Shown here in pieces: positions 1 through 52,700 of a stretch of DNA of 64,000 bases (position 1 is the first letter of the stretch; each line of letters opens with the position of its first letter). The position numbers and the translations under genes were made by a program. Under the pieces are notes generated by a model. It saw only the letters and a program-made list of their open reading frames with translations, had not been told where the DNA came from and did no database searches. Source of the DNA: Protoeuglena noctilucae (taxonomy: Eukaryota); NCBI GenBank assembly GCA_958009085.1, contig OY253690.1, forward strand, positions 124,001 to 188,000, read 5' to 3'.

Positions 1-3000
1 GCGGGACGGCGACGACGATAGCACAGACGACCACGACCCTTCCCCACGCAACGCCGACGGCCGCAGCAGCTCCGGGGCCAGCAAAAGGTCCGCCGGGTCG
101 CGGTACTCCGCCCCGGGATTCGATCCGCGACCGCTCGGGGTGCCGGGGGAAACGGGGGGAGGTGCACCAGCGGGTGCGCCGGAACGTGCTGTGGCTGCAC
201 CGGAACGTGCTGTGAGCGAGTGGGGGCGCGTGGGGGTGACACGTGCTTCGGAGGATCTCAGAGAGAGACTTTGCAGATCTGTGCGATGACGATCGCGGTC
301 GTTTGCGGTGGTCCGTCGCAGCTGCATGCGCGCTGCTTGCGCTTGGGCCGCGTAGGTGAGACGTCGGTACAGAGCCATTCCCCACGGCAGTCCGATCTCT
401 TTCATCTGATTGAGGACTTGGCCGGTCAGGAGCAGGGAGATGATCTGGGTCTGTGGGGGAGGGGGAAGGGGGGGTGGGGGTTGAGTAGGTGGGGGGAGAG
501 TAACTGTGTAGTGAGGAGCAGGGAGATGATCATTGGCACCAGTCGATTATACAGTACTATTTACAGTGACCTAGTGCGCTACGCTCCACCACCAACACAG
601 CCACCCAACCCCCCGTCCCCACCCCCATCCCCCTCCCCCTCCCCAATGACCCTCTCTCGCCTGCAGCTGCGCCCAGTCCTTTCGTATGAACGCGATGTAG
701 AAGAGCGATATATTGGCGTTGAAGGTGAAGAACACGAACAGCCGCGTGGCCATGGCGTTGGTGAGGGAAGTGTCAGTGCGGTGCATCTCCCAGTCAGCAA
801 GGCGGGACGAGGCCCAGACGTACGCGGACTGCGATTGGAAATGGGTTACAAATCATGAATATATGTAATGTAATATATGATATTATAGTATTTATGATAT
901 GTTGCATCTCCCAGTCGGCAAGGCGGGACGAGGCCCAGACGTACGCGGACTGCGAGTTGTATGAAAAGAGGGATATGTTTTCAGTAAACATGTAGATATA
1001 GATATGTTATACATACAGACATATGCGATGGGACGAGGCCCAGACGTACGCCGACTGAGACGCAACAAGGTGACGGTGGACGAGATGCACCTGTACTACT
1101 ATCAGATACGAATCACATTGTCGTTATGAGTATTCTGAATCCAAAGCACATGTTCACCTGCGATACCGGGATGATAAGCCCGTTCAGCACCCCCGTCACG
1201 GTGCATGCGATGCAGCTATGCTACTGTTTCACCGATACTAATATTAAAACTACTATTGCTCAATATAAATCATATTCACCTGCGACACGGGTATGATGAG
1301 CCCGTTCAGCACCCCCGTGACCGTGGATGCGATGCGGGCGGCAGTGGCGGTGGTGACGGACCCGGGGGACCACAGAGTGGCGCCGAACAGGGAGCCGTCT
1401 CGCAAGTTGCTCTCGATCGTCTGCGTTGATTAGGGAGAGATAATGGTTAAGTGTTTGTTACTTTATCTATAAAGTTGCTCTCGATGGTCTGCGAATAGTT
1501 AGCCACGGCTGTTACCGCCGCCACTCAATCATTAACTCTGATCAAAGTACTTTAACTCAGTGTAACCACTATTCCTCGCCTGCAGCAGTATCATGATCCC
1601 CAGCGACGCGAGGCAGGACACGGCCAGCAGCGCCACGGATGCACTGGCACGCAATGTGCGCTGGAATGATGGGATGTAGTAGACGTCGCCATATGCGGCG
1701 AGGTCGGCCCTGCATGTGATAGGGGTGTGGTTATTAGTATTAATAGTGTGTTTTGTTAATATTGGCAGTCGTATACTAGTAATTAAAACGATAAACCCCA
1801 CTCCCACCAACAACCCCCCCTTCACTGGGGACTCCCCATACACACCTGATCTGCCTCTCCCTCGCCACCGCGTCCCTCCCCTTCATGTTCAGATTCAAAG
1901 CCTCGAACATCCACGCCATCACGCGGCGCTGCTTTCTGGCGTCCGCGCTGCTCAGCTGATCATCAATGCGAGCCACGAACTCTGGCCGCACCGATTGGGA
2001 GAGGGATTCCGAGGAGGGGCCCTGCTCCTGCGAGGATGGTAAGGGGGCAGGGGATATTGTTGGTATCTATAGTTTCACTGTTGATATGTATTATTGGGTT
2101 CTTGCTGTACCTCTTTCGAACATAGCAGTGGAGACGAACTGGGACCCTCATACATACCGAATAGCAATACTAACAATTATTGTTATAGTCATAATAACAA
2201 CAGTAAAAATAAACTCTTAACTCGCCTCCAGTCCGTTCTTCCATAAATATGCGTACCGCGCCTCCTGGGACCCCCACTGCGCCACCAGCCACACCGACCA
2301 CAGTGCCACGAACGCCGCAAATAATACCACCAAATACGTGTATCGGAAATCGAACCCCGATGATCCCCGCAAATCCACCACGTTCACCAGCACCGCCACC
2401 GCAAGGCCCAGCACTGTAGGGGAGGGAGTTGGGGAGTTAGTTGTTAGTAAATATGAATTGGTCATATGAATATGAATGCACTGCGGGGGTGTGTGTTAGG
2501 GGGGCTGATTGTCAGTAGTTAATATAAATGGATACCATGATATGATATGACTATACATTTACGTTTACCAGTATACTTCCATTCCACAAACAAGTACAGT
2601 ATCACTACACCCCCCCCCCCCTCCCAACACAACTATTACTCACCCGACGGCACAATGAGGCTCCTGGTTATAATAAATAATATAATTATATAATCATAAC
2701 CACAAACATCAACCCCCCAATCCACCCCTCACCCGAGGGCACGATGAGGCTACTAGCAAAACTATAACAATGCAGTAATCCTACTTAATTATCGAAAATA
2801 AGACTACAATTACTGATCGCTACTCACCCGAGGGCACGATGAGGCTCCTTGTGTAAGATTGCAGAAACGCAAAGTACAGCCCCCTCTCGTGCCCGAAATA
2901 GTCCATGACCTTCTGCAGAGGCTGACTTAACCATAAGTGGGGCTTGCACCAGAACCACGGGTCGTGGGTCCATGGGAAGGCCCATTCGCGGTTTAACTCG

Positions 3001-21314: not shown

Positions 21315-22571
21315 CTACCACTTGCCCAGCATCCGCAGCGCCGAGGCCACCACCAGGAACACCGACGTCATCATGCCCACGAACCACTTGATCATGTCGT
21401 TCTTGGAAGCCTCGAGCTGGGTCCTGCAGGCAGCGGGGGCGAATGGACTACTAGCACAGGACGGGTGGCGTGCATGGCGTGGCGTGACTGGCATGGGACG
21501 GGTGGCATGCCAAAATTCCCTGCTCCCCGACCTCGCCTCCCTTGCTCACCTCAGCGCGTTGAGCTCCCTCTCGAACTTCTGGTCCTGCTCGTGCACCTGC
21601 TCCATCATCTTCCGCAGCTCCTCGCGCGTGTTGCCCCTCTCCAGGTTGATGTCCAGGCGCTGCGTGCTCTGCAGCTTGTCGACCTCGTGCTTGAACTCCA
21701 CCCGCAGCGTCTTGATGTCCTGCCCCAGCTGGCTCTGCCCGCTCTGCACCTGGCCCAGGCTCATCTCCTGCGCCTTGAGCACCTCGGCGCGCGCCGACGC
21801 GATGCGGCCCTCCAGGTCGATCAGAGCCCGCTGCAGCGATGCCTTCTCCACGTACGTCTCCGAAAGACGCTCCTTGTGCTCGCACAGCAGCTGGGTCAGG
21901 TAGGTGGCCAATCGGTCGGCCTCGTGTCGCGGCATGCCCACCTCCGTTGAGAACTTGTGCGACATCTCGAGCGTGTTCACGAACAGGTTCTGCGCGAAAC
22001 CAGACAGCGCATAGTAATCTAAGAAGAAACGCGATGTCGCGGGGCGGCTGCGGGGCGCGCCAGCGCAAACGCCCAGGGATTGCTGCCCGCGTGCCCGGGA
22101 GCCGCGCTGCGCCGCCCTCACCTTGCGCATGGCGGCTTCGGGCGACATGGGAATGGACGCGGCGCTCCCGCCGATGCCGCCGACTAAGTTGGCGCCCGGG
22201 GAGGGCCCCGAGCGTTCGCTCCCCGTCCGGGCCTGCGCGGCCGTCCCGAAGAACGACTGGTCCCCCTGAGGCGTTCCCGCGATACCCTCGAGCGTCATCG
22301 ACGTCTTGGGCTTGAGTGCCGGGGCGCTCGCGTGGCCCCGCGACGAGTCGCGGAGAACGTCAAGCGACGTTCCTTGCGAGGGAGCCCCCGCGGCGCTCAC
22401 GGCCGACGAAAGGCATCTGGCCGCCGTCGACGATGCGAACACCTGCAGGAGATCACGGACGAGCTGCGTCGGGCGTCTGCGGGGCCGGAAAGGGGCGCGT
22501 CCATTGCTCCCAGCTACCGCCGCACCTCGCCGCCCCAGCGCCACCGATAGCGGTCCACGTGCCCTGCCCAT
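21315..22571 (-). CDS. DUF1640 / FMP32 / CCDC90-MCUR1 family mitochondrial coiled-coil protein
   Basis: FVNTLEMSHKF...QRLDINLERG...ELNALR|TQLEASKNDMIKWFVGMMTSVFLVVASALRML: coiled coil plus C-terminal TM, typical of DUF1640. Basic, presequence-like N-terminus. Confidence 0.85.
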
Positions 22572-23212
22572 GGTGCTGGCGATCGTTTCCAAGCGTCCCG
22601 AGCCAGCGGAGTGCGGCTCGCGTCGCGGGACGCCGCGAACGCGCGCCAGCCCGGAAACAGAGTGGAGCGCCCCAGCCCGGCCATGCTGCGGTGCCAGTGC
22701 CGCGAAGTGCCGAGTTCCGCGGTCTTCGAGAGACAAGGGGTCAAACAGGCCCCGGAATAGGAGGCGAGCGCGTGCATGGTCCTCCGCAGGAGGACCTCTG
22801 CTGGGGAAGTGGGCATGGCCCTCACGCTGCGTCGCGGCTCAGTCACGGCAAGCACTAACGAACTACGTCTGAGGACAGCGAGGGCACGCACGCGCGCCCG
22901 AGGCGTCGCTCGCGCTGGTCAGACCAGGTGTTGCCCCAGCCGTGCTGGTCTCACGCGCTTTCTGCCTGCACCCAGGCTCCTCCGCGGACACATTTGGTGG
23001 CACATCGTCTCTGCGGCACAGGGACGAGAGAGCTAGCTTTGTCCACACCCCGAGCGCAGCATCGCAAACCAGCGTGCTTCTGCACGCCATCCCCTGCCTC
23101 CCTGGGCTCTAGCGCCAGAGCTGACGAACGTTCGTTTGCTTCCCAGTCACATCCTGCGTCGGGGCGACCAGGAGGCGGCTAGGTCTCGCGTTCAGCCAGT
23201 GGGGCAACACAA

Positions 23213-26200
23213 ATGGGGGACTCCAGGTCCCGCTCCCGCTCCCGCGACCGCTACGGCCGGTCGGATAGCAGGTGCGAGTGTATATCGTGCCGCGACGGCG
23301 CGAAGCCATCGCATCGGGTGCCGCGGCGCCGCTCACGGTCCTCAACCGGCGCTGTGGGCGTCGAAGCCCGCCCCGGCGCTTTTGAGCCACCTCCCGCCCG
23401 CGCGAGCGCCGCGTCGTCATCATAATCACCCACTGCGTCTTTTGCAGGGACCGCCGCGAGCGTCGCGACGAGGACGCGTCGCGCCATCGCGACCGGGACC
23501 GCCGCGACCGCGACCGCGATGGTCGTCGCGACCGGGAGGCGGAGAGGGGCCGGGATAGGGACAGGGACGCGCATCGTGGCCGCGACTATCTTTGGGAGAG
23601 AGACGACCGCGAGAGAGATCGCCGGTCGGACCGGGAGAGGGAGCGGGAGCGGGAGCGGGAGAGGGATCGCCGCCCCATCGGCCGCGACCCGGGGTCTGCG
23701 AGAGCCGAGGGCGGGGCGGGGACGAAGGCCGCTTTGCCGGAACGGCGGGGTGACGAGGGCCGGCGAGGGGCGGACTCGGGGGGTCCGTTGCCCCATGGCA
23801 GGTGAGGCGGGTGGGTGGGTGTTGGGCTGTGAGCAAAGCATTGTGGGTGCAGGAGCGAGGTGTCGTTTCGTGTGGCGTGGTTAAAGGCTCTATATCCCTG
23901 CGATGCGTGCAGGGGCAACGGTGCTGCTGGGAGGGAGGGGTCGCGAGACCGGGGCGGGGAGGCGGGGACGGCAGGGGCGGTGGAGAGCGAGAACGGGGAG
24001 GGGCGCAAGGAGCCCATTTCTCTGGAGGAGCTGCTGAAGGTGAGCTGGGGTGATTGGGGTGATGTGATGAGAGTTGCTGTCATTGGGGTGATGGGAGCTG
24101 CTGAAGGAGAGAAGTGGTGATGGTTGGGTAGCATGAAGTGGTTCCGGCATGGAATAGGTCGACAGGTAGTACCTGCTTTGTACGCTGGTACAAAGCAGTG
24201 CATCTGCTGAGTTTGCCTAATTCACTCACCCCTCACCTCCCCTTTCATTCCTTCCCTCTCACCCCTCCCATCACATCCCTCATCCCTCTTATCCCCCTCA
24301 CCTCCCCTTCACCTCATCGCAGCGGAAGCAGGAGGAGGCAGTCGCGGCGGCCCGGCCGGTGTTTCTGACGAAGCAGCAGCGCCAGGAACAGGCGTTGCGG
24401 GCGCTGGAGGAGAGGCGGAGGGCCCGGGAGACGGAGCTGGAGGCCATGCGGTGAGGAATAAGTATGGATGGGGAGCGATTGGTACTAATTGTGTGTGTAT
24501 GAAAGGGTGTCGGTGCGGTGGGGGACAGGAGATGGAGCTGGAGGCCATGCGGTGAGGCACTGTGCATGGGGAGCATGGGGAGAGATGGGAAGAGAGGGTG
24601 GCGATGCGGTGAGGGATTAAAGGGGAACTGCCACCATGCAGTGTTGGCATGGTCGTCCTCATGTCACTCGCAGCCACCAGCACGCGTCGGTGCTAGATGC
24701 ACTCTTGTCCTGCACTATAACTGGTACTGCCAATTCTAGTAAGATTATGACAACTGATGTCCTATTATCCACTCGCAGCCACCCGCACGTGTCGGTGCTG
24801 GACGCCGAGATGCACAATCCCTTGTACTTCACAAGCATTGATAGCAAGACTAACATGTCCATTATTTGATATCTTTGCCTGCAGCCACCAGCACGCGTCG
24901 GTGCTGGACGCCGAGTTGCAGGAGGCCCGTCAGCGCGAGGCGCGTCTTCAGGAGGCCCAGGCATTGAGGGACCCCAGGGAGAGGGAGAAGCTACTGCAGA
25001 ACATACGGAGGACGTACCTGGGGGGAGGGCCGGTCAAGAAACGCAAGGCGAGTGATAAGCATGGGTGGTGAAATATGATGAATGATGCGGGTGTGATGGT
25101 GTGTAACAAAGGGGAGGGCCTGTCAAGAAACGCGAGTGCTATGAGGGGGGTGTTATGGGTGATGAGGGTAGGTTGGTATCTTGTACCTGGGGGGGATGGC
25201 CGGCCGAGAAACGGAAGGCGAGTGTAGATGGGGATGTGTTGTGAGAGGGTGGTGAGGGTGTGTTGGTAGTGAGGGTGTAGGCGCAAAGCTGTATGTGACT
25301 CCAACTCCACTCCCCTCATCCATGGCCCTCATCTTCACTCCTCCCTCTGCAGGTCACGGCGGGCCCCGAGCGCGACCGATTCAAATTCGAATGGGGAGCG
25401 GAGGAGGACACTCTCCGCGAGGCCAATCCTTTGTTGTCGCACGCCATAAACGGCGTGGGTGACGCTCCGCTGTTGTTCGGTCGCGGGACGAGGGGTGGGG
25501 TGGACCGGGAGCTGCAGATGAGGGAGAACGTGGCGAAATCAGCGGAGGCGAGTGGTGGATGAGAATGTATACGGTGATAGTAGTTATAGTAAATATAGTA
25601 ATATAGTGATAGTAATACAGTGATAGTGACCGGGAGCTGCAGATGAGTCAATGAGTGGTGATGGTGGATGCAGTGACGGTAATAGTTATAGTGACGGTGA
25701 CATTAAGAGAGCGTCCCTTCGTTCTCCCCAGACCCTCAAGCGTTATCGCACGGAGGAGGAGATCAAGTCATTGGCGGAGATCGGGAGCAAGGACCACTGG
25801 TGAGAGCCAATTATAGGCGATGGATAATATATAGATGATTTATACATATACACATATATACATATGGTGAGGGTGGGGGAGATCAAGACGCTGGCGGAGA
25901 TCGGGAGCAAGGACCACTGGTGAGAGGTGGATGTAATTTATGTATCGCGATGTCATTACGGGTATCGGTATTTTCGTCGTCATCTTCATCCTCACATCAT
26001 TTCGACAATTTAACATGATATTAATATTATTATAATAGTTTTTTGATAAAATGATAATATTATGATAAAATATATTATGGGTATTTGTGGTGTTGCAGGG
26101 ACAAGCGCGAGAAGGGCAGCCTGGCCAAGATCAAGCATTGGTCGGAGAAGAAACTCGAGGACATGGACCAGAGGGACTGGAGGATCTTCTTCGAGGACTT

Positions 26201-29200
26201 CTCCATCTCGTACAAGGCGAGTGTCATGTGCTATGGATTGACTGTTTGCTTTCAGTCATGCCACCCAACCCCTTGGCACTCCACTCTCCACCACACCCCA
26301 CCCAGCCCACCCAACACCCCACGCCCTCACACCCCCCCACACCCTCACCCTCACCCCACACATCCCCCCACACCTTCCCCCCCCCCAGGGCTCCCACGCC
26401 GACAAGCCCCTGCGTTTCTGGCACGAGATGCGCGTGCCCAAGGCAGTCCTCAAAGCCATCGACCGATTGGGCTGGAAGGACCCCTCCCCCATCCAGCGCG
26501 CCGCCATACCCCTCGGCCTATCCATGCGCGACGTGATCGGTATTGCCGAAACGGGTTCTGGCAAGACGTGCGCGTTCGTGGTCCCCATGATTGCGTTCAT
26601 CGCCAAGCTGCCCAAGATGACCGACGAGGTCGCGGCCAATGGGCCGTACGCCATCATCATGGCGCCGACGCGGTGAGGGATGATTGGTGGTGGGTGATGG
26701 TTGTATTTATAAGTGAGAATGGGTGGTGGGGTGGTGATGAGTGGTGTGGGTGAGGGTGACGGTGATGAGTCAGGGTGGGTGATGGATGGCAGTCACCCTA
26801 ACTGCTAAACAGTGAGCTGGCCCATCAGTTGTGATAGGCTCTCTTAGTATAAGCTAATCATAACTTCCCCCCTCTATCTCCCCCTCAGTAAGCTGGCCCA
26901 GCAGATATCAAATATAGATAGTGAGTAGCCTCTACTTAAATTACCCAATCCTCTGTTCTTCCCAGTGAGCTGGCCCAGCAGATTGAGGAGGAGACGCGCA
27001 AGCTGATGCACTACTCCGAGTACCGATGTCTGTCGGTGGTGGGGGGGGAGTCCCTGGACGTGCAGGCGTCCGCGCTGAGGAGGGGGGCGGGTGAGCGGTG
27101 ATGTCAAAGACCACAGCATTGAGATGGCACAACACGTGTCTGTGTGGGTGTGTAGGTGTGTGTGCGTGTGGGTGGGTGAGTGTGTGGGTGTGTGTGTGCG
27201 TGTGGGTGGGTTAGTGTGTGTGTTTGGGTGGGTGGGTGGTGATTGGCAGATGGGCAGGCGTCCGCGCTGAGGAGGGGGGCAGGTGAGCGGTGGGTGGGTG
27301 TTGGTGGGTGCAGGTGGTGGGTCACAGACTGTAAAATGCAGGGATTTGCGCAGTGCTAAAAAGCGTAGACACCTCTCCTAGTATCGTCTTACCAATTACC
27401 ATCTACTTAAATCCCATCCGCAGAGGTGGTGATTGCCACGCCCGGCCGCGTGTGTGACCACATCGAGCGGCAGTACCTGGTGCTGAGTCAGTGCAACTAC
27501 ATTGTGCTGGATGAGGCGGATCGGATGATCGACCTGGGATTGGAGCTGCAGGCGAGATGATGGGGTGGGGTGGTGCGGGCGGGTAGGGATGGTGTGGAGT
27601 GGTGAGGGGTGATGTGGTGCAGGTGAGGTGAGCTAAAACAGTCTATGTTGTTTTTGTCACTATTGCTAATAGTAAGATTCTTTGTGCGCCCCTGAGGCAA
27701 TCGCAGGTCAACCAGGTGATGGACGCGATGCCCAAGGGAAAGCTGAAGCCCGAGGCAGAAAATGCCGAGCTGGACCCCACGGCCATCTACCGCATCACCT
27801 ACATGTTCAGGTGAGATTGACAATAGAGCATGTGCCAAGTCACCTACATGTTCAGGTGAGATGATGGGATGTTTAGATGGGGTGGACGGGGCATCTGCCG
27901 AAGAGTACGCTTGACTTGCACCCACAACGACGGATAAAAACACTTACTTCCGCACCCGGAGACACACACCCACACCCACACCCACACCCACACCTACACC
28001 CACCCATACACACTGTCTGCTCTCTCCCCTCAGTGCCACGATGCCCCCCACGGTGGAGCGCATCGCCAAGAAGTACATGCAAACACACACATACACATCA
28101 CAAAAGAAAGATATAGATACACCAACTCTCTCTCTTTTCCTGTTCTTTCAGTGCCACGATGCCCCCCACCGTGGAGCGCATCGCGAAAAAGTACATGCGC
28201 AATCCGGTGGTGGTGACGATCGGGGTTGCGGGCGACGCAGGGGCCAACATCACGCAGCGCATCGTCATGGTCAGCCCAAGCGAGAAGGACCCCACGCTGT
28301 TCCGGTGAGTGAAGCATAGAGTATGGTAAATGTTTTATCATCTGTGTTCGTGAGAGGGACGTTACGCTGCGCCAGTGAGAATGGTGCTTACTATGCGGTC
28401 GCAAGATACGACATTGTACTCAACACGTTGCAACTCGACCATTTCCCCTCATCGCCCCCTTTGCATCCTTGTCCTCTTCCTTAGGTTCCTGCGAGAGCTT
28501 CTTGCAGACACGGCAGACAACAACTAGGTCCTTGTCATTGTTATTGTCGTTGTGTGTAATAGTAATTAGTAACTATACTTGTGCATCTCCTCTCCCCCAG
28601 GTTCCTGCAAGAGTTCTGGAACACGGCGGACGACAAGAAGGTCATTGTGTTTGCCAACACCAAGGCCACCTGCGACATCGTGCAGAGGTCGCTCGAGAGG
28701 CAGGGATACTCGGTGTCGGTGCTGCACTCGGGGAAGGCGAGTGGGGTTATGGCAATATCAATGGTGATAATGTCATTGTTAATGATGTTATATTATCACT
28801 GTGATTGTCAATACCTATAAGATGGCGCTCGAGAGGCAGGAGTACTCGGTGTCCGTGCTGCACTCGGGCAAGGCGAGTGGTTATATATGATCGATGTCAG
28901 TGTTATTATATGTCATTGTATGTCAATATGAATACCCATCTCATAATATGGCGTGGGAGAGGCAGGGGTACTCGGTGCCGGTGCTGCACTCGGGGAAGGC
29001 GAGTGGTAAGTGTTCGCGGCAATGCCTGTGTGTGTAATTGGCAATGCCCACCACCCTCTGCCTTGTGTCTCGTGTCACCCCATCCCACTCCCTGCCTCTG
29101 GTCAGCATCCATGTCCCACTCTCTGTTCCCCACCACCCCTATGCAGACCCAGGAGGCCCGCGAGCACGCCATCCGCTCCTTCCGGGAGGGCGCCAACAAC

Positions 29201-30292
29201 GTGCTATTGGCCACGGACATCGCCGGGCGGGGCATCGACGTGCCGGACGTGTCGCTGGTCGTCAACTACGAGATGCCGCAGAAGGTGAGGGGGAATCGAT
29301 AAACAGTTATCTGATAATAATGGATGATGCCGCAGAAGGTGAGGGTGGATGAGATGCTGGTGATGGACTCGCAATTGAGTAGGAGAAGCCGCAGAAATTG
29401 GCAGTGTGGCGGCAGTCATACACGCGCCCCGTGGTGCCATTGCCAGCACCCTGACGGGACTTCCCCAATGCCCTGCCATGCATTAAGTGATTGCGTGCTG
29501 CCGTCACCATGCACCCCACGCCCCTCTGCCCCCCCATGCCCCTCCCCCACCCTGCGTACTCTTGACTGCCTGCCGCCGTCAGGCACCCCACGCCCCTCTG
29601 CTCACCCCCTCTGCCCACCCCAACCACCCCACGCCCCTCTGCCAACCCCAAGCATCCCACGCCCCTCTGCCAACTCCAAGCACCCCACGCTCCTCTGCTC
29701 ACCCCACCCCGTGCGCAGATCGAGCCATACACACACCGCATCGGGCGCACGGGACGCGCGGGCAAGAAGGGGACGGCCGTGTCCCTGGTCACTGCGGGGG
29801 ACTCTGTCATCTTCTACGACCTCAAGAAGCTGCTGGAGGTGAGGGGTAGCATGCATGGTGTGAGGTCATCTAATGTGACCTGAGGAGGCTGCTGGAGGGG
29901 TGAGGGGGCGTGAAGGAGCATGCATGGTGCGAGGGCTGTGGTGCTTGGGTAGTGGCTGCGACCTCGTGAGAGGCGCAGGGTGGGTGGGTGGAGGTGCAGG
30001 GTAGGGTGGGTGCGGGCATGCAGTGCGTGTGTTGTGCGCGATGCATTGTGCAGCAACATGCAGCTCTCCGCACTCCCCCGCACACATGCGCTGAGCGGGA
30101 CCTGGCATGGTCGACCTGTGCTCGTTTTTAAATGTGGCACAAGTACTGCGCCCCTGGATATCGAGGGGTGTGTGTTGTCGTGATCGGCTTGCATACCTGT
30201 GCTGTCCATGTGCACCGCAGAAGGCCAAGCAGCACATCCTACCCGAGCTCGCACGCCACGAGGCGGCACAGAGGCCAGGCGGGGGCATGTGA
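23213..30292 (+). CDS. PRP28: DEAD-box RNA helicase PRP28/DDX23 (U5-100K), ~17 exons
   Basis: RS/RD-rich N-terminus, [92 protein letters not shown] and [13 protein letters not shown]. Confidence 0.95.
29511..29705 (+). repeat. Intronic minisatellite, ~5 copies of CACCCCACGCCCCTCTGC with variable spacers
   Basis: Copies at ~29512, 29584, 29625, 29653 and 29681 inside a PRP28 intron. Confidence 0.8.
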
Positions 30293-30718
30293 GGGGCGCG
30301 GGAGTGAGGGCCAGAGAGGGCCATGCGGAGAAGCACACGAGGCCCAGGCAGCGATGCGCAGAGCGCACGTGCCGATGGCATGCCGCATGGAGCCGGAGAC
30401 AGCGCCGGGAGAGCCCGCGGGGCTCGCGAGGAGCGTGGGCAAGGACCGACCGAGGAGCACGGGGGAGAGGAGCTATGCACAATGCTGCGGCAGGTGCCCC
30501 TCCGGGTGTCATGTAGGATGCACGACGAAATGTAGAAAGCGCAGCCACGCAACGACACGGCTCCGCGGGCCGGCTAGGGCGGTGCTGGCTGTGGGGCGGC
30601 CTTGTGACATCGCTCCTCGTCCGTAGCGCTCCATGTCGATGGCTGAGTCGCGTGTGAAGTGCATGTGTACCTCGGCGGTCTTCTGGGCTGACCCGTGCGG
30701 AGCATCGGCGCAAGCATT

Positions 30719-31093
30719 GGCGCAGCCAGCCACAGCACGCAAGCCGGGGTCTCCCCTGCCAGGCTGGCAGGTGGGCTTCGACGGTGGGGCCCGAGACCGG
30801 CGCAGGGCACTTCGCGCCAACAGCCGAGCAAGTGCGAGAGTGAGGTGCGAGCCGCGAGCGTGCGATCGGACAGGGAAGCGCTGGTTAGAACTCACATCAG
30901 CCAGCCTGCGGTCCGGTGGGCGTCTGCGCCGCGTGCGAGGCCGGTCTCTGCTGCAGGTGAGGGGAGAGGTGGTTGCGGAGAAGGACACTGCGGGCGTCGG
31001 GGCTTCAGGCGCGGCGCCTGCGGGTGCTGAAAGGACCGTGCACTCGGGCAGGGTGGACGGCGCGCGGGGCCCGTGTCCGCCGGTCGGCGTGCG
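30719..31093 (+). repeat. Upstream non-coding segment shared by F-box-ANK copies B and D (inverted homologue at ~61263-61657)
   Basis: The stretch ggcgcagccagccacagcacgcaagc...ccctgccaggctggcagg.gggcttcgacggtgggg...gggcacttcgcgccaacagccgagca matches the reverse complement of 61520-61657. Confidence 0.85.
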
Positions 31094-36200: not shown

Positions 36201-39200
36201 CCGGAGGGTTCTTGGCTGCCCAGTCGGCCCTTAGCAGAGTCGACAGAAGGGCGGCTGGCGGGGTGGGGTGCGCCGGGGGAGGCCAGGCCCAGCCCCTGTT
36301 GGTCAGCGACGCTCCCCACAGCACTGGATGCGTTACCGGCGTTACCGACACCGATAGATTTGTTACCGGCGTTATCAGCATCGATGAATGCGTCACTAAC
36401 ACCAATGGATGCATCACCGGCATCGATAGATGCATGGAGAGGGTCGATGTAGCTGAGGGGGTCGCGTGCGGTGGGCCCGGCGAGGGAGGGGGAGTCTTGG
36501 AAATAAGAAGACCCCAGGCCAAGGGCACTGCGGAGCTGCGGATGGGGCGGGAGGTGGGGAGATGTGTAAGTGGTGTGGTGCCCGGGCTGCGGGGCTGCGG
36601 ACGGTGGGGGGAGAGATAGGAAGAGGTATGGGAGGTATATATGAGAAATATCAGGACCCGTCCCACCGCCCAACCATTTAGAAATCTACTAACAACCCTG
36701 CCCTCGTCGCACCGCCCGCCGCTTCTCTCACCACCCCTTCACTGCCCCTCACCTCGTCATAGAGAGATAGATACCCCCCACTCCCACCACCCACCCCCGC
36801 CCCTTGTCACACCGCGACCTGGCCAGGAACCCCTCACCTCATTATAAGCCAATCCCCACCACCCACTCCACCCCCTCACCTTGTCGTACCTCGTCCTCGC
36901 CAGAACCCCCCTCACCTCACCTTATCATAAACCCCTATTCCCACCACCCATCATGAAAAGATACCCCCCACCCCCTCACCTTGTCATATCTTATCCTCGC
37001 CAAAAAACCCCTCGCGTGCCGCTGCAGTGTCACCACCGCCCGCCACCTCTCCCGCGCCCGCCGCCTCGCCACCGCCCCCCGCCACGCCGCTTGCACCTTC
37101 ACCGCCTTCGATTGCAACAGCGCTGCGTATTTCTCTTTTAGATACCGTTCCCGCACGACCCTCGCCCGCCACGCCTTTTGGATGGCGAGCACGGCGCGGA
37201 TGCGCGACGCCACTTGTCGCCTATCCCGCCACCCCCGCACGGCCGCTTGGATAACCACGGTGGCTCGGTCTAATGCGGTGTCCTCGGGGCGGCGCAGAGA
37301 GTCGGGGGTGGAGAAGGAGAGGGGGCCCAGGCCGGACGTGGAGGGCTGGCTGCTGAGGGACCTGGGCGGGTGTGGGGGTGCCTATATTTGTGAATTACTT
37401 GCATGTTGGACAGTACTACTTAGTGAAGCTTGGCTGTTAAGGAAATCCCACCTCACCTGCCACCGCACAGCGCTCTCTGCCATCAACCCCCCCCCAAACA
37501 CAACTCCTCCACCCATCACCACCCCCTCTCTTCCCCACCCATCACCACACCAATCCCCACCCCATCTCCTCCCTCATTACAATCACCATCCCATTTCTTG
37601 TCACCTCGCCTCGTCCGCCACTGCCGAGTCCCCCCCACATCTCCATCACCCATCACCACCCCCTCTCCCTCTCACCTCGCCTCGTCCGCCGCTGCAGAAT
37701 CCCTGCGCCCGATTGCCACACCCCCACGCCTCCCCCCCCGCCCCTCCACGTCGCGACTCACTGCCTGGGCCACTGCTTGGGATACAGAGGGAGATAAGGG
37801 TTACAAGGTGTGAGAGTTAAGAGGGGTGATTGATAGGGGATATGCACATGCGAGCAAACAGCACTGCGCCACTGCTTAAAATGGGGAGGGAGATGAGGGT
37901 CACAGAATGCGAGTGTTAAGGTGGGTGACTGATGGGGGATACAGACACGCGAGGGCACAGCACTGGGCATGTTAGATTGCATTTTGACTCTTGCACTCAA
38001 CATTGAAACCCCGCACTGTCGCACCCCCTCTCACACACACCCCCCGTCACCCCATGTTGCACCCTACACCACCCCACTCATGTCTCAACACCTCATGTTG
38101 CAATCTACAGTCATTATCAATAACACCCCCTCCCAACCCCTCACCCCTCTTCCCCAGGCTGCTGCTGGAGGCCGTCCTCGCCACGGCCCTCCGCCCCGTC
38201 GTCAGCTCGTGCACCCTCGCCCAGAACATCTCCCTGATTGCTTGGTACTCCGCCGATGCCTCTTTCAGCTCCGCCCATCGCTGATCTAATAGCTCGCGGA
38301 GATACAGCGAGCCGCTCTCGCTCTCCACCAATTCCTGAGGCAGGTGCATGAGGGGGTTCACGGTAATAATGTTTGCTTATCAAGTTTTGCTTACTGTCAA
38401 TCTTTATACTGTCTCCATACATGTAGCCACTATTGGTGTCATGTTATGGCAAACCATGGTACCTCATTCCGTGTATGGCTGTATTGTTATCCAACCATCA
38501 TCCACACACTCGCCTTGGATATGTCGCTGTACCGCACTTCGATGTCAGTGCACAGCCCCTCCCACTCGCTGTTGGCGTCGCTGGCCCGGGCGCGCCTCTC
38601 GCGCTCCTTGTCCGCCGCCTGGCGCTCCTCCAGCTGCGGGGAATGGGATATGTATGCGATTATATTATATTATATTATATTATATTATATTATATAATAT
38701 TATATGAGAGAGATGACGATGCATGAGTCTGGCGGTGGAATTGCCTTTGTACCTTTGGACCTCTTTGTACCACTTTAGTCGCATCGGGCTCTTAAGACGA
38801 AAATGAGAGATACCGTAGAGAGACTGGGCCATGCGCTACACCAAGCCTGTTTTTCACTATGGTGCCGACCCATGCACACCACCCCACCCCCACCTGCACC
38901 ACCCATGCACCCCACTTCACTCTCACCTGCACCTCCCCCTCCTCCCTCCCCTCCCCCTCTACTTGCGCCTGCAGCACATCCAGGTCTGCCTCGGCTGCAC
39001 GGCGACGGCGGTCGATGGCCATCCTGCGATCATGTTGGGAGAGAGTGGTATCATACCATTTATCAATGGCCATGCTGCGATCGATAAAAGAGAGCGGTAT
39101 CGGTGTTCACTTGATACTATCAGGTGTTGCCAACACCATTCCCGTCTCTCGCAGCCTCTTGCAGGAGATGGCTTCCCTCGGTTGGCAGAGTGTTGCATGT

Positions 39201-46700: not shown

Positions 46701-49700
46701 TGTTAATCGCGACGTAAGGGTGGTGATGAGGTCTAAGGCGTCTGCGACGGTGACGAGCGATGCCAAAGCGCGGGTGGCCAGGCGACGCACGGCGATGTGG
46801 CGGGAGCGGGTGCATGCTGGGGGGGGTAGCGAGATGGGGGTGGGGTGAGTGGAGTTGAGTTGATTTGCGTGGGGGTGAGGTGAGAGGGGTGGGGGGATGG
46901 TGTGAGGGTGAGGAATACTGTCGCATATTGCCAGCGCAAATGCGTGTAAGCAGCAGTCGCTTGCTATCACGACCACAACACCACTCGCCTGCCACCAATC
47001 CCACTCCGCACCATTATTATCAACTCTCATCCATCACCACCCCCCCCACCCCACTCACCCGCCACCATCCCCACGAACGCGGCGGGCGACGGCCCCCCCC
47101 GGTCCCTGGCCCGGAACGACGGCTGCAGCCTGGCCAGCAGCACCAGCACGGGATACAAACAAGGGTGGATGGACGACCCGGGTGGAGCGACGCGTGGGAA
47201 GGGGCGCCGGTTTCTGTTTCTGACACCGACTGGGGGGGACCCTGCGTGCCAAAATCCCCAACGCCGCCGCCGCCGCCCCTCTGCGCATCGCCCGACCCGT
47301 TTTCCGTTCTTCCAGAGTTGCTTGAAATTGCTCCAGCGTTGATCACTCCCTGCTTTGCCCCCTCAGCGCCCCCCTCTTGCTTTGCTGACTCGTCCCCATC
47401 AGTCACCCCGACAGTCGCCTCCCCCTCCCCCCCCAACTGGGCCACGGCCTCGGCCAGCTTCGTTAGCAGGCTGGGGTGCAGGGTTCGATTCCTGAGGAAG
47501 AACTCCCCGCCCGTCACCGACTGCACCGTGCTGCTCCCCCGCCCCTTGTTGCGGTGGCCCACGGCCTTGGCAAGCAGCGCCACGTAACACATGCTGGCGG
47601 CGCTGCGGACCTGGGGGGGTGAGGGTATGGAGAGATATATATAGATATATAGATGTATGGATAAGTGCGTAACACATGCTCGCGGCGTTGCGGACCTGGG
47701 GGTGAGGTAGTGGCTGATGAGAGTAAGAGGGGTTCGTAGAATTGACCTGGGCACCTCTCTCGGTTACTGCAATCCCACTTTGTAAGCTTCCACTGCAATG
47801 CATCCTCCGCGATATCCATTGCCTCTCTCACCCACCACCCACTACCACCCTCCCCCCCCTTCTCCCCTCACCTCCCACTGCGGCGCACTGAGCGCGTCGA
47901 TGGCCACGCGAATCGCCTCCTCGTGCCTCCCATAGGCATCGATCGCCAGGTGATGGGAGAATAGCAGAGCACGAATGGTGTGGAAGGCGTGCACGCGGGG
48001 CCAGGACTGGTCGTAGGTGAGACGGGACGCGTCGCCCGCTACCTGGGGGGGTGGTGGGTGTTATAAAGGTGATGTGAGGGGGGATGTGGGGGGCGGGGTT
48101 GTTATAGGGATGATTTGAGGGGTGGTGTGAGTGGTGATATGGAAGGTGATGTGAAATGCGTAACGGGTGAGAGAGTAAGGGTGCGGTATCACAACCGAGA
48201 GCAAATGACCAACTCACTGAATCTCTCTTACCCCATCACCCACCACATCTCTCACCCGCAGCACATCATCCAGTATCATCCCCATCAGCGGCTTGGCCCC
48301 CCTGGTTGCCACCGCCTCCCCCGCCGCCACCGCCAGCAATGCAGACGGCAGACCCGCAGACCGTCTTGTAATATCATCTCTGCACTGCCCCGGTCGCTGT
48401 AACCAGGTGAGTAGATCGGATGCCCAGGCGTGGGGGTGGGGGGAGAGGTCGGGGCGGCCGGTGGCAAGGAGGACCTGGGGGGGGGGGGTGGGGGGGGGTT
48501 GTGAGGGGTATGGGGTAATAAGAGGGGTGGGTGGTGGGGATGGGGGTGCGATGAGAGATGAGTGATGAAACATGGCTGTAAGGGGTGAGTCATGAGTGTC
48601 ACTGGTGAGCTATCATGGTTGTGACGTGACAAACTCATCTCATTGCATGTCCCACCGCCATCCCTCGCCTGCGTGAGCGTGGCATAGATGCAACACCCAC
48701 ACTCACACACACATCTCATCCCCCACCCCCTCGCCTGCGTGAGCGCGGCCAGGCTCAGCGCCGTGCGGTCCACCGCACCCCTGTGCTTGACGGCCTTCAT
48801 CGCAGCCACCATCGACGCGCCCATCTCGGCCATATCAGAGGCATGGAGCACGCCGTACCAGCGACGATTGGTGGGAGCGTCACTGGTGGTAGTAGCGCTG
48901 TCGTGTTGCGCATTGCTCTCCTCTTGTGCATTGCCAGCATGTGTACTGCCACTGCTCACAGCACCACTGGTCATGGTAGCGCTGTCGTGTTGCGCATCGC
49001 CCTTCGCTTGCGCATCACCCCCATGTTGTGTGCCGCCACTGCTTACAGCACCACTCTCTGTTTGTGCATAGCCCGCCTGTGAATGACCACTTCTCTTAGC
49101 AGCGCCCTTCCCTCGCACATCGCCACCCTCCCCCTCCCCCACCCCTCCCCCTGCCACCCCCACCCCCCCCTCTGCATTCCCCACCCCCACCACTCCATCC
49201 TTTGCCTTATCCCATTCTCCCTCCACGTTTTCTGGCACCAGGGGCACTTTGGATGCAATCTCCGCATACAAGGCATGCACCTCGCGCAGCGTCAGCCACG
49301 TGCCCGTCACCAGCACCTGGGGTTCGGCAGAATGGGGGGAGGAGGATTTTGTGAATGGCTGGAAAAGGCAGTATTATTGTTTCGGATGTTTACTTAGTTG
49401 TTTGGTTAGCAAAGCTGACAGCAACGTGGGTACTTGCCCCTCACATGCCCCTCTCGCTCTCACCACCCCTCGCATTGCCACCCTCCCCTCACCTGCACAT
49501 CTCTATCATACAATATATACACCCCTATCATCCACTCCCACCACCGCCACATCCCCCTCCCCTCACCTGCGCCTCCGACCCCAGCACCCCCTCCCCTCAC
49601 CTACACCTACATCTACACTTATCCATCACACACCCCAATCATCCACTCATCTGCACTTATCTACCACAAATGCCCATCCTCTCACAACCTTTTAATACGA

Positions 49701-52700
49701 CCCTCCCCTCACCTGCGCTTCCGACCCCAGCACCCCCTCCCCCTCCCCCTCCCCCTCCTCTCCCCCCTCATCCCCCTCCTCCACCTCTCCCGCATCCGTG
49801 TTGAGTCGATACTGGCCCAGCACGGGCACACAGAGGGACGAGGCGCGGCGGCACTGGGAGAGCAATGCGGAGAGGGCTGAGCCGAACTGGGGGGGAAGGG
49901 AGGAGGGGGGTTGGGGGTTAGAGTAGGAGAGGTGGTGAATTGTCGAGGGTTGATGGTGGCAAGTGTTGTAGTCTTACTACAACACTTAACCCATTCCTCC
50001 CCCCCCCCTCACCTCCCTCACCCATCGCTCACTCTTAACCACATCACCCACTCCCCCCCTCAATGCACCCACCCCCTCACCTCCCTCCCCCACCTCCCGC
50101 TCCTCGCCACCGCCCCCCACTCCACATCCCCCACGCACGCCCTCGCCATGCACAGCGTCCCATGCGCCAATGCACCCCGGCAAGCGGTTAGCAAATCCAT
50201 ACACCCCGCATCCACGTCACTTGATAGGCGGGCCACCACCGATCGAAGCGTCGCCAGGTGACCCGACAGGTCGAGGTCTTGTGTTGATAGAGGCGAGTTT
50301 CTATTGGCAGTGATGGTTGCGTCGGTATCGTCAGCGATCAGCGACACAGGCGATCTCTTGGCAGTAGTAGTGGTTGGGTCAGTACCACTGTCAACCATCG
50401 ACACAGGCGACGACATCTTAGCAGACGCTTGCTTAGCACTGTTAGTGTTACTCGACTTGGTGGTATCGTCACTGATCGACACAGATGCCATCTTAGCAGT
50501 GATGGTTGGCTCGGTATCGACACTGATCGATGCAGTGCCAGTTGCCCCCTCATCTCTCCCAGCAGCAGCTCTTGGGCTTGTGCATATGCTTGTGTCTGGC
50601 ACCGCGGTGATGGCGATGGCGGGGTGTGCCGTGATCTGCCACCCCCCGCTCCGTGTGTAGGTGCGGAAGAGGAGACTCCACACGCGAGCACCCGCGTCGC
50701 TCTCTGCGTGTCGGGTGGAGGGGGGAGAATCAATGATATTGCAGGTCGAAGTATGATGTTATAGCGCCAGCCTACATCGCCAGTGCAAATTAAGAGAAAA
50801 AGATAATACATAGTACGAACAGATATACACACACCCACAACGACCATCCACTCACCCCTCGCCCTCGGCGACCGCACCAGCCCCACGACCCACACCACCC
50901 GTACTATCAACAGCAATAATAATAATACACAATAATCACAATTTCAAACACCCCAGCTCACCCCTCGCCCTGGGCGACCGCACCAGCCCCTCCACCCACG
51001 GCGCCAGCACCGCCAGTTCCCCCTCGCTCCCCAGCCCCGGCAGTGGCCGTGGCATTTTCATCAAAGCAGCCTCGCAAGACGCCCGCAATCGCACCCACGG
51101 ATCGACCAATCCCTGCACCAGCGCCCAGCACAGGCGGGGCCAGAAGGTGGGCGTGGGGGGTAGGGGTCGATGGGACGAGCGATGTCGACGGCAGTGGGGG
51201 TGGGGGTGGGGGTGGTAGTGCCACTAGTAGCAGTAGCAGTAGCACCGATTGTAGCAGTAACTGTACCACTAGTAGTAGCAGTAGCAGTGGTAGTGGTAGT
51301 GGCAGTGGTAGTACCCGCACTATCACCACCCCCACCCTCACGCCCGCCAATCGTAGCACCGCCCACACCACTGCCATCTCCAATCTGATGCGCCCCTCCA
51401 CCCGCCCCTTCGCCTGCGCTAGTAACTGCGCCCGCATTGCCACCTGCGCCTGCATTGCCCGCTGCTTGGCTGGTCACTGCTTGGCTGTGTATGGTGGGGG
51501 GCCACAGGGTGAGCATGGCGACGAGCGTCTCCGTGGCCATGAACCTGGTCGCGAAGGAGTTAGACGGGAGTATTCCGTTGTTGACAGCGTCGATGACGGA
51601 TTGGAGGAAAGACTCCAAGCGGCGGAGGGTGGTGGGGTCGGCGGGGTGGGGGGGGTGGTTGGCAGAGAGGGACTTGGCGATGCTGGGGGGGGAGTGAGTG
51701 GGAGAGGGGATGAAGGAGTGGGCTTGGGTGGTTAGCAGAGCAAGACATAGAGATGGTGGGAGGGAGTGAGGAAGTGTGTGGGGGTGGCTAACAGAGCGTG
51801 ACTTGGTGAAGAGAGAAGGGAGTGGGGGGGAGTGTGAGGTGAGAGGGGTCGCTAGGGCAAACAGGACTTGAATATTCGAATTTGCAAGTAGTGCAGAGAC
51901 ATGGCAACGGCCTCAGTCCAGCTCCCCCACTCCACGCTCACCGCATCGCCGCCCTCCTCCCCACCGCGTGCACCCTTTCCAGGAACTTGCGTATGGCCGT
52001 CACCCACCGCGACCGCTGCCCCAGGGACGTGCAGCGCAGGGAGTGGGGGAGGAAGCCGGACATGAGGCTGAGCTCTGTATGAAGGGAGAGGAGCGGATAG
52101 ATAAATGAACGAAACGTCGATTGTATTACACATATAATCCCACTCCATCCCATACCTGCCAGTCTCCCCCCCCATTCCCCCCCACCCCCCCTCACCCAGG
52201 TTGTCCAGCGACGCCGTGGGCCTGACCTCTCAAATCTCTCTTTATCCCCTTACACCATCCCTCACGCAACTCTCACCCAATCATCTACCCAACCCATCTC
52301 AGTACCCCATTCTTACACCCCCCTCACCCAATCATATCATACCATCCCCGCCCTCATCCCCACCCCTCACCCAGGTCGTCCAGTGGCGCCGTGGGCCTGA
52401 CCTCTTAAGTCTCTCAATCCCCATCCCAATCATCTCCCTACCCAATCATCTACCCATCTCAATCCCCCTCCATACCACCCCCCCTCACCCAGGTCGTCCA
52501 GTGGTGCCGTGGCCCTGGGCTGCTCGCACACCAGCGCCAGCGCCGCGTTCTGAAGGGCCTCGGATCGGTGGTACAACGCCGCTTTCAAAATCGAGGGGTC
52601 CAGGCCGTGGCGGTCGCAGGCGGCAGCGAGGGAGTCCAGGCGACACTCGCGGCGGGCGGCGCGAAGGAGGCAGACTGAAGAGGGGGGGGAAGATATATAG

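Follow-up and report, generated by a model that had tools for sequence, protein, structure and literature searches.

Most introns of a DDX23/PRP28-type DEAD-box helicase gene are found to carry echoes, by which we mean intronic copies of an adjacent exon end plus its splice signal, identified by cognate local alignment. The gene holds 19 of them, 13 of donor and 6 of acceptor junctions, in 12 of its 16 introns. We consider it probable that the echoes are remnants of short tandem duplications of DNA spanning an exon-intron junction, which were retained through use of the outermost splice sites and have since been decaying.

Junction copies in a PRP28 gene

The host gene (23213..30292, plus strand, in the 64-kb window, the whole stretch of DNA that was analysed) has 17 exons and 16 introns, five of them with GC donors, and its joined exons form an open frame from an ATG start to a TGA, encoding 823 aa. 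The product has an arginine/aspartate/serine-rich N-terminus, single exons match DEAD (PF00270), Helicase_C (PF00271) and the DDX23-like domain PF25430 in Pfam, and its three best PDB matches are DDX23, hPrp28 and Prp28, with human DDX23/hPrp28 as the closest relatives of solved structure. With DEAD, Helicase_C and DDX23-specific domains, and Prp28/DDX23 as nearest solved relatives, the host gene is a DDX23/PRP28 homologue. Intron 23802-23912 was placed by motif and frame only, and intron 24040-24322 by a 14-letter loose end. Neither Rfam nor tRNA scanning gave a match in the window. The many GC-AG introns and the high G+C content are reminiscent of haptophytes.

All echoes lie on the plus strand. 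From the 5′-end of the gene, the first is a donor echo at 24094..24111 in intron 24040-24322 (parent 24027-24044; score 15.5, 17 of 18 positions matching), in which GT has become GA. Intron 24451-24884 has copies from both sides: two donor echoes, 24528-24557 and 24597-24617 (parent 24427-24459), both with the donor motif GTGAGG and the nearer one matching its parent at 29 of 30 bases, and two acceptor echoes, 24670-24700 and 24775-24814 (parent 24881-24920), both with CAG and with units of 105 and 106 nt. Two donor echoes with the motif GCGAGT follow at 25111-25136 and 25183-25224 in intron 25048-25352 (parent 25014-25054). The copy at 25628..25647 in intron 25548-25731 matches an exon fragment (25503-25522) at 20 of 20 positions and is best read, from its letters, as a donor echo with a putative internal deletion and a lost GC; it is the one echo that does not contain the splice junction, which the other 18 do. 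The donor echo at 25872..25926 in intron 25800-26098 (parent 25752-25806; 50 of 55 matches) has its donor intact, as does that at 27254..27292 in intron 27091-27423 (parent 27062-27100; 38 of 39 matches), which lies 192 nt downstream of its parent, past a GT-rich microsatellite. Between them, intron 26673-26965 holds two acceptor echoes, 26810-26828 and 26886-26906 (parent 26963-26983).

Further downstream, intron 27811-28151 has both a donor echo, 27840..27862 (parent 27795-27817; 23 of 23 matches), and an acceptor echo, 28030..28080 (parent 28148-28198; 48 of 51 matches), and intron 28305-28600 has a degenerate acceptor echo with a TAG acceptor at 28472..28535 (parent 28588-28648; 51 matches, 10 mismatches and 3 gap columns). 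Two donor echoes in intron 28737-29146, 28820-28880 and 28957-29006 (parent 28684-28744), share the donor motif GCGAGTGG. The last two introns concerned are 29285-29718, with a donor echo at 29326..29345 (parent 29272-29291; 20 of 20 matches), and 29839-30220, with a donor echo unit at 29865..29934 whose spacer is also homologous to that of the parent unit, 29806-29865.

A first-pass annotation had placed echoes in nearly every internal intron of the gene, and the observation is confirmed, with 12 of the 16 introns of the whole gene affected. Cognate local alignments recovered all 16 coordinates that it named (nine donor and six acceptor echoes plus the fragment at 25628) and added three, at 24094, 24597 and 29865. 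As a control for chance, each junction's probes were compared with all 14 intron interiors, yielding 182 non-cognate scores per probe type, which averaged about 7 and never went above 12.5. The cognate probe scored higher than this ceiling in 10 of 14 introns on the donor side and in 4 of 14 on the acceptor side; longer probes gave the full 19 echoes in 12 of 14, with scores of 13.5-46. Two further introns upstream stayed below the threshold, with best scores of 11.5 (23272-23447) and 9.0 (23802-23912).

Assembly stutter or a collapsed-haplotype artefact, the former named in the first-pass annotation as what would overturn its reading, is scarcely credible as the source of the echoes, because substitutions and indels separate the copies from their parents and independent contigs contain them. 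A contig from a DNA run covers 22800-25801, including four echo-bearing introns, with 0 differences, and the echoes at 25111, 27840, 29326 and 29865 are present in RNA-library contigs of another study with 0-1 differences. In the DNA run, moreover, the De Bruijn contigs break at 25801/25897 and 27134/27246, as real repeats should make them do.

The identity of the echoes to their parents ranges from 100% over 20-23 nt in the freshest to about 80% with indels in the oldest, and the age series proposed earlier is thus apparent. The synonymous changes that had been quoted for the echoes at 28031 and 24667 are correct (in 28030..28080 all three differences fall on synonymous third positions), but the description as clean synonymous variants applies to those two echoes only. 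Exon-part mismatches across all echoes number 47 and are split 12:14:21 over codon positions 1:2:3, which is not a significant bias (hand chi-square about 2.9, 2 df). Given this spread, the echoes look like unconstrained pseudo-copies, and they may be neutral.

Splice sites used in the mRNA

Fourteen of the 16 PRP28 introns are spliced exactly at their outermost sites in contigs with 0 mismatches, within the tool's stated cut ambiguity. The evidence consists of assembled marine metatranscriptome contigs, in which rare isoforms are dropped by assembly and one joint is not displayed. Thirteen of the joints, covering the introns from 24451 to 30220, come from contig X1 record 2 (2320 nt, 0 mismatches) together with the X2 contigs, and a fourteenth removes intron 23272-23447. 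Introns 23802-23912 and 24040-24322 have no joints because the RNA contigs lack cover of 23856-24119. Among the joints listed for these assembled contigs, none uses a decoy site. The selection of the outermost donor and acceptor, which had been proposed from the genomic letters, is thus seen in RNA. Run X3 also yields low-depth unspliced pieces, which could be pre-mRNA or DNA carry-over and are uninformative on decoy use. A DNA-run joint from 28246 to 29821 (25-letter side) is not at splice sites and was therefore set aside as a repeat or graph artefact.

Most of the sites passed over look perfect, as the first-pass annotation had stated. Alignment finds GT or GC in 10 of 13 donor echoes, an eleventh is read directly at 25132 past a 5-nt deletion, the sites at 24094 and 25628 are lost, and AG is retained in all six acceptor echoes. 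Their use would be costly: each of the 11 intact decoy donors is predicted to lead to a premature stop, as are five of the six decoy acceptors, the sixth giving a frame shift.

Retained motifs, and cores that outlast the spacers in identity, are what would be expected if the echoes were functional, either as U1/U2AF landing pads that aid weak sites (GC donors, for example) or as unproductive-splicing switches that tune expression. We regard such a function as quite improbable, since similar echoes are present in unrelated genes (see below), the copies form a decaying series with indels and two lost sites, and decoy joints are absent among those listed. Nor are echoes enriched at GC-donor introns of this gene, being found in three of five compared with 9 of 11 GT introns.

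Alternative or constitutive micro-exons, or recursive sites for stepwise intron removal, are very improbable. AG|GT is found at the copied junction of some echoes (e.g., 27283 and 27856), usually without an upstream pyrimidine tract, and could be taken to favor them. However, each echo has one splice site only, a first recursive step at 27856 would require a 45-nt intron, and the introns are removed in one piece in the mRNA contigs, which cannot show intermediates. Constitutive micro-exons, the other observation named beforehand as fatal to the echo reading, are contradicted by these contigs, which join the outermost sites and skip the echoes.

We return to duplication as the probable source of the echoes. 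A tandem duplication with a unit of about 45-190 bp would span an exon-intron junction. After duplication of a donor junction, the authentic exon end would stay upstream and the second exon end with its donor would become intronic; for an acceptor junction the arrangement would be the mirror image. Duplication alleles would survive because the spliceosome, by joining the two outermost sites, excises the entire duplicate and leaves the mRNA unchanged, and use of an inner site would give an unproductive transcript. The outermost choice itself may come about through a first-site or exon-proximal preference combined with decay of mis-spliced RNA. Once intronic, the copies would be free to decay by substitutions and by frequent indels in the low-complexity spacers, producing the age series.

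Tandem units and a proposed growth of introns

In four arrays (24665-24920, 25022-25268, 28684-29007 and 29806-29934), gapped alignments show significant tandem homology over whole units (E-values between 1e-5 and 6e-35). Units 24665-24814 and 24770-24920 are 70% identical over 158 columns (E 1e-12), units 25022-25178 and 25111-25268 are 68% identical over 172 columns with spacers alike, units 28684-28881 and 28820-29007 are 77% identical over 201 columns (E 6e-35), and the array 29806-29934 shows 73% over 70 columns. Spacer-to-spacer similarity in the four arrays agrees with tandem units. Spacer homology was not significant in introns 24040-24322, 25800-26098 and 29285-29718 or for the donor echo of 27811-28151, and the spacer similarity in intron 27091-27423 is driven by composition only; for this reason we infer a tandem origin in these five introns by analogy with the four arrays. 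Tandem Repeats Finder reported short-period repeats and none of the 45-190-nt units.

Another mechanism at the DNA level deserves consideration here, namely templated junction patches copied into an intronic break by polymerase-theta-type repair, or foreign insertion with unusually long target-site duplications as by intron-generating transposons. In most donor echoes the similarity, by direct reading, stops sharply 6-10 nt past the donor, and fresh cores at 27254 (38/39), 27840 (23/23) and 29326 (20/20) are accompanied by unalignable spacers, both of which fit this alternative. It is at odds with the homology over entire units in the four arrays, and no exon-internal piece was found copied without a junction. 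We consider it unlikely, also because PRP28 introns and spacers have 0 matches elsewhere in the window, so that an introner-like multi-copy intron family was not encountered there. Introners, which occur in marine algae, can take a splice site from an exon-sequence repeat at the intron edge, and they form multi-copy intron families with target-site duplications of 3-9 bp at both intron ends (PMC9860276) and/or terminal inverted repeats, whereas the copies here are 18-61 nt long, direct and internal to the intron.

Tandem duplication as we favor it has to accommodate the observation that cores are 83-100% identical compared with 68-77% for whole units. Such preservation goes beyond what constraint on the parent alone would give, and needs either indel-prone spacers, which the sequences suggest, or gene conversion from the exon.

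A role for short intragenic tandem duplications has been modeled by Rogers, with ATP2A1 as an example: duplication of an exon segment containing AGGT creates a new intron, and, as in our proposal, the redundant copy is made harmless by being spliced out (PMC3265369). In an intron of that type the 5′-end copies the start of the downstream exon and the 3′-end copies the end of the upstream exon. This pattern was above the non-cognate maximum in none of the 16 PRP28 introns in either direction (cognate scores at most 11.5 vs a maximum of 11.5). Unlike the new introns of the Rogers type, the duplications here would enlarge existing introns. The introns with echoes (12, of 184-434 nt) are all longer than the four without (111-176 nt; Mann-Whitney p = 0.002). 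Of 4608 intron nt, 1849 (about 40%) belong to echo units, and intron length minus echo units averages 179 nt, compared with 154 nt in the echo-free introns. Duplication could thus be a major source of intron length.

Other genes, known systems and significance

The same layout is found in other genes of the window. Eight of the 16 non-PRP28 families examined have an edge that carries a donor motif, together with a long open frame extending from the outermost copy only; they are known from the sequence of this one 64-kb window. Four examples, all on the minus strand and of donor type, illustrate this. The three copies at 36791..37013 adjoin an IQ-motif gene, and a long minus-strand open frame extends only from the rightmost copy (138 stop-free codons vs 18 and 43). 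Two copies at 49555..49742, 98% identical and 146 nt apart, adjoin a THADA/Trm732-like region (91 vs 15). The three copies at 52185..52533 are spaced by 175 and 118 nt (77 vs 21 and 28), and the two at 2728..2846 are 24 nt long, 100% identical and 95 nt apart (82 vs 19). The trait is therefore not peculiar to PRP28, as at least eight other families, including those of the IQ-motif and THADA/Trm732-like genes, have the layout. Going by this one window, the process appears to touch many genes of the genome and to have no special link to PRP28. PRP28/DDX23 is a helicase that acts at the 5′ splice site, and since neighboring genes share the trait, we take its being the host gene as a coincidence.

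The echo-rich layout is likewise not a general property of PRP28 genes, as the local repeat density at this locus is 7.5 per 10 kb compared with a median of 0 at 80 PRP28 loci found in a metagenome scan with the longest PRP28 exon. The nearest of these (L001), at 71% amino-acid identity, is uninterrupted by introns across residues 16-671 of the PRP28 model. Loci L049, L010, L041 and L003 each gave a single unbroken match over the part covered, with no orthologous intron to compare, and the scan returned no near-identical locus.

The closest known case is a minisatellite in intron 7 of human F7. According to PMC1557585, it is a 37-bp VNTR whose first unit lies across the exon 7-intron 7 boundary, creating several pseudo 5′ splice sites that are identical to the real one and proved functional when tested, yet splicing uses the most upstream site alone. 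The introns described here resemble it in three respects. A terminal unit containing the boundary is seen as whole-unit homology in four arrays, with the core alone alignable elsewhere; near-identical pseudo-sites are present, with a GT/GC motif in 11 of 13 donor and AG in all six acceptor echoes; and the exon-proximal site is used, with 14 outermost joints and no decoy joint listed in contigs that are blind to low-level use. F7 is one locus with short identical units on the donor side only, whereas the present duplications affect 12 of the 16 PRP28 introns and several neighboring genes, their units are diverged and 45-190 bp long, and acceptor junctions are duplicated as well, with the most downstream copy used. 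Engineered tandem duplications of globin splice sites (1983) have also been described, in which the duplicates compete and one fixed copy wins (as cited in PMC1557585). Those constructs were artificial and placed in mammalian cells, whereas the duplications here occur naturally, in large number, and have become fixed in a protist. Some of the globin experiments reportedly resulted in use of the outer pair.

Full-text phrase searches of the open-access literature turned up no account of widespread junction echoes, nor any description of the scale of duplication-driven intron growth or of gene conversion of echoes, and their pervasiveness appears undescribed. We also put forward, tentatively and with less than even confidence, a wider proposal: junction-spanning duplication could be the chief driver of intron growth across the genome, contributing about 40% of intron length and setting up thousands of natural duplicated-site experiments that follow a strict outermost-wins rule at both 5′- and 3′-ends, the selected exon perhaps refreshing the cores through gene conversion of short tracts.

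How one of several equally good splice sites is chosen is a long-standing question, and most work on it has used a handful of engineered constructs and a single human minisatellite. If most introns of this genome carry such duplications, they would provide a large natural data set with a known correct answer for each case, in which copies could be graded by distance, strength and age, and which would include the rarely studied case of the 3′ site. Gene predictors may be misled by perfect-looking inner sites, which warrants caution in annotation. The duplications would also point to a way for short introns to lengthen that is simple and can be measured.

The PRP28 gene and its junction echoes

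The first-pass annotation had reported that introns of the PRP28 gene carry copies of their flanking exon ends together with the adjoining splice signals (echoes, of donor or acceptor type), and this observation is confirmed. The gene (23213-30292, + strand) has 17 exons and 16 introns, and its joined exons form an ATG-to-TGA open frame of 823 codons. Single exons match DEAD, Helicase_C and the DDX23-like PF25430 in Pfam, the best three solved relatives of the longest exon are human DDX23/hPrp28 and a Prp28 chain, and the product has an Arg/Asp/Ser-rich N-terminus. G+C is 66% in exons and 54% in introns. The RNA evidence consists of assembled contigs from two marine metatranscriptome runs, X1 and X2, in which spliced contigs align with 0 mismatches. 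Thirteen joints, from record 2 of X1 (2320 nt) and from X2 contigs, cover all introns from 24451-24884 to 29839-30220, and a further RNA contig supplies the joint of intron 23272-23447. Each joint corresponds to a predicted GT-AG or GC-AG boundary within the ambiguity that the tool gives for the cut position. RNA support for intron 24040-24322 is a 14-letter loose end only, and intron 23802-23912 was placed by motif and frame alone. Five of the 16 introns have GC donors of the form GCGAGT (25048, 25548, 26217, 27552 and 28737), all in agreement with RNA joints within the same ambiguity, and this GC-AG share is unusually high. The introns between 24040 and 30220 are also asymmetric between strands, with G/T-rich 5′ parts (GGTG-type repeats) and C-rich repeats in their 3′ parts, such as a 28-nt array at 29606-29706 and a C-rich tract at 26288-26387.

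As a control for chance, probes made of a flanking exon end and a few intron bases were aligned to all intron interiors. Scores of non-cognate pairs averaged ~7 with a maximum of 12.5, a value exceeded by cognate donor probes in 10 of 14 introns and by cognate acceptor probes in 4 of 14; the two upstream introns gave no echo above threshold. The full catalogue, built with 60-nt probes and iterative masking, holds 19 echoes (13 donor-type, 6 acceptor-type) of 18–61 nt, with identity from 100% down to ~80% with indels. It includes all 16 copies of the first-pass annotation and adds those at 24094, 24597 and 29865. Echoes above the non-cognate maximum thus occur in 12 of the 16 introns. The splice dinucleotide is intact by alignment in 10 of 13 donor echoes, in an 11th by direct reading after a 5-nt deletion, and in all six acceptor echoes. 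All copies of exon sequence adjoin their own splice junction without a break; the one apparent exception, at 25628, looks like an echo that has lost an internal segment.

Probable tandem origin, decay and intron length

Assembly stutter, raised at the outset as a possible source of the echoes, is ruled out: the copies have diverged from their parents, a DNA-run contig spans 22800-25801 with 0 differences, and the echoes at 25111, 27840, 29326 and 29865 recur with 0–1 differences in low-depth unspliced contigs of an RNA library from a separate study. In RNA run X3, such contigs (25020-25177, 27747-27905, 29169-29366, 29702-29917) cross from an exon into an echo-bearing intron, and represent either pre-mRNA or intron retention, or else DNA carry-over. 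One contig of DNA run X8 joins the exonic points 28246 and 29821, skipping 1574 nt; one side of this joint has only 25 letters and it does not fall at splice sites. It is probably a graph artefact, with a processed or rearranged copy as a lesser alternative.

In four arrays, gapped BLAST recovers homology of the whole unit, spacer included (all + strand): 24665-24814 with 24770-24920 (70% over 158 columns), 25022-25178 with 25111-25268 (68% over 172), 28684-28881 with 28820-29007 (77% over 201, E 6e-35) and 29806-29865 with 29865-29934 (73% over 70). These units, ~59–136 nt, lie head-to-tail, and for the other echoes the distance from parent to echo is 45–192 nt. The spacers of the remaining arrays share no significant similarity with one another and include microsatellites, for example a GT-rich one at 27136-27239, as well as low-complexity sequence rich in A and T. 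No PRP28 intron matches elsewhere within the 64-kb window, and the pattern expected of introns born by exon duplication, with the intron start resembling the downstream exon and the intron end the upstream exon, is absent from all 16.

The first-pass annotation had pointed to clean synonymous variants. Two such echoes are real but unrepresentative, as all 47 exon-part mismatches split 12:14:21 over codon positions 1:2:3, a bias that is not significant (hand chi-square ~2.9, 2 df), and coding constraint is apparently absent from the echoes. The far acceptor echo differs at 24695, 24698 and 24701, successive third-codon positions, by changes that are all G/C to A/T; as neither the exon nor the middle echo shares them, they arose on the echo's own lineage, and their three-base spacing may be chance (~1 in 27). 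Conservation is higher in the echo cores than in the spacers. Indels make up most of the difference between alignable spacers, and indel-prone spacers explain part of this contrast, though not the whole; alternatively, the selected exon may have kept the cores intact through short-tract gene conversion.

The four echo-free introns measure 111–176 nt and the 12 echo-bearing introns 184–434 nt, without overlap (Mann-Whitney p = 0.002). Distances from parent to farthest echo total 1849 of 4608 intron bases (40%), and when they are subtracted the echo-bearing introns average 179 nt, near the 154 nt of echo-free introns.

Choice of the outer splice sites

Use of any of the 11 intact decoy donors is predicted to give a premature stop, as is use of five of the six decoy acceptors, while the sixth would shift the frame; such mis-spliced RNAs would be exposed to nonsense-mediated decay. 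The suggestion that the spliceosome selects the outermost sites holds for the assembled mRNAs, in which the RNA joints match the outermost donors and acceptors and no decoy product is found among the joints listed. Because assembly loses rare forms and the tool did not show one of the joints, low-level decoy use is possible. On the acceptor side it is the exon-proximal copy that wins; how the outer sites win is something we infer. On the donor side, the choice agrees with human F7 intron 7, where the most upstream of identical donor sites has been shown to be preferred (PMC1557585).

Other genes, other genomes and a proposed explanation

A window-wide scan for local direct repeats (non-low-complexity, at least 24 nt, 30–450 nt apart) found 48 pairs, 33 of them outside the PRP28 gene. 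Eight of 16 families examined there have a donor motif at their edge, on the minus strand (1149/1271, 2728/2823, 8600/8711, 36791-36968, 37601/37672, 49555/49701, 50851/50957 and 52185-52478), with a long stop-free frame only from the outermost copy (48–138 vs 15–43 codons). Some adjoin the IQ-motif gene (36938-37381, −) and some lie within or next to the THADA/Trm732-like gene (47023-49373, −), both identified by Pfam, as are a protein kinase gene (12834-13574, −) and a CCDC90-like gene (21549-22838, −). Judged from these motifs and frames, junction echoes are not specific to the PRP28 gene, and their link to an essential splicing gene is incidental. Ankyrin-repeat genes flank PRP28 (19736-20902 and 30627-32609, both +) and lie near the window end (56490-58689, −); their DNA is similar at the level of the repeats, and a 201-nt tandem duplication (84% identity) lies within one of them at 20339-20740.

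Repeat pairs number 7.5 per 10 kb here, against a median of 0 in 80 metagenome PRP28 loci of other eukaryotes under the same scan. The closest PRP28 relative found (L001, a 4831-nt metagenome contig matching at 2588-4546; 71% amino-acid identity, 72% G+C) has no intron across the region where the gene here has 14, and four further metagenome loci (L049, L010, L041 and L003) each give one uninterrupted match, free of introns over the part that they cover.

Among known cases the F7 minisatellite comes closest; in that account it is a single locus and involves the donor side only (PMC1557585). Target-site duplications of introners are given as 3–9 bp and terminal (PMC9860276), whereas the PRP28 echoes are 18–61 nt and lie inside introns. 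In the Rogers model, as presented in PMC3265369, introns are created, whereas the duplications here enlarge them. No report of pervasive junction echoes was found in open-access full text.

Short tandem duplications seem to arise readily in this genome. Those confined to exons would be purged by selection, whereas duplication from an exon into the adjoining intron, or the reverse, would alter neither the outermost splice sites nor the mRNA if the outer sites are chosen, and the intronic copies would then decay. With ancestral introns of ~150–180 nt and units of 45–190 nt, a tolerated duplication that touches an intron would in most cases have to span a junction, and we infer from these sizes that no junction-specific mechanism is required. 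Junction echoes are best regarded as a pervasive form of a known kind of element, the tandem repeat that spans a junction and carries pseudo splice sites, and it is this pervasiveness that appears to be new.
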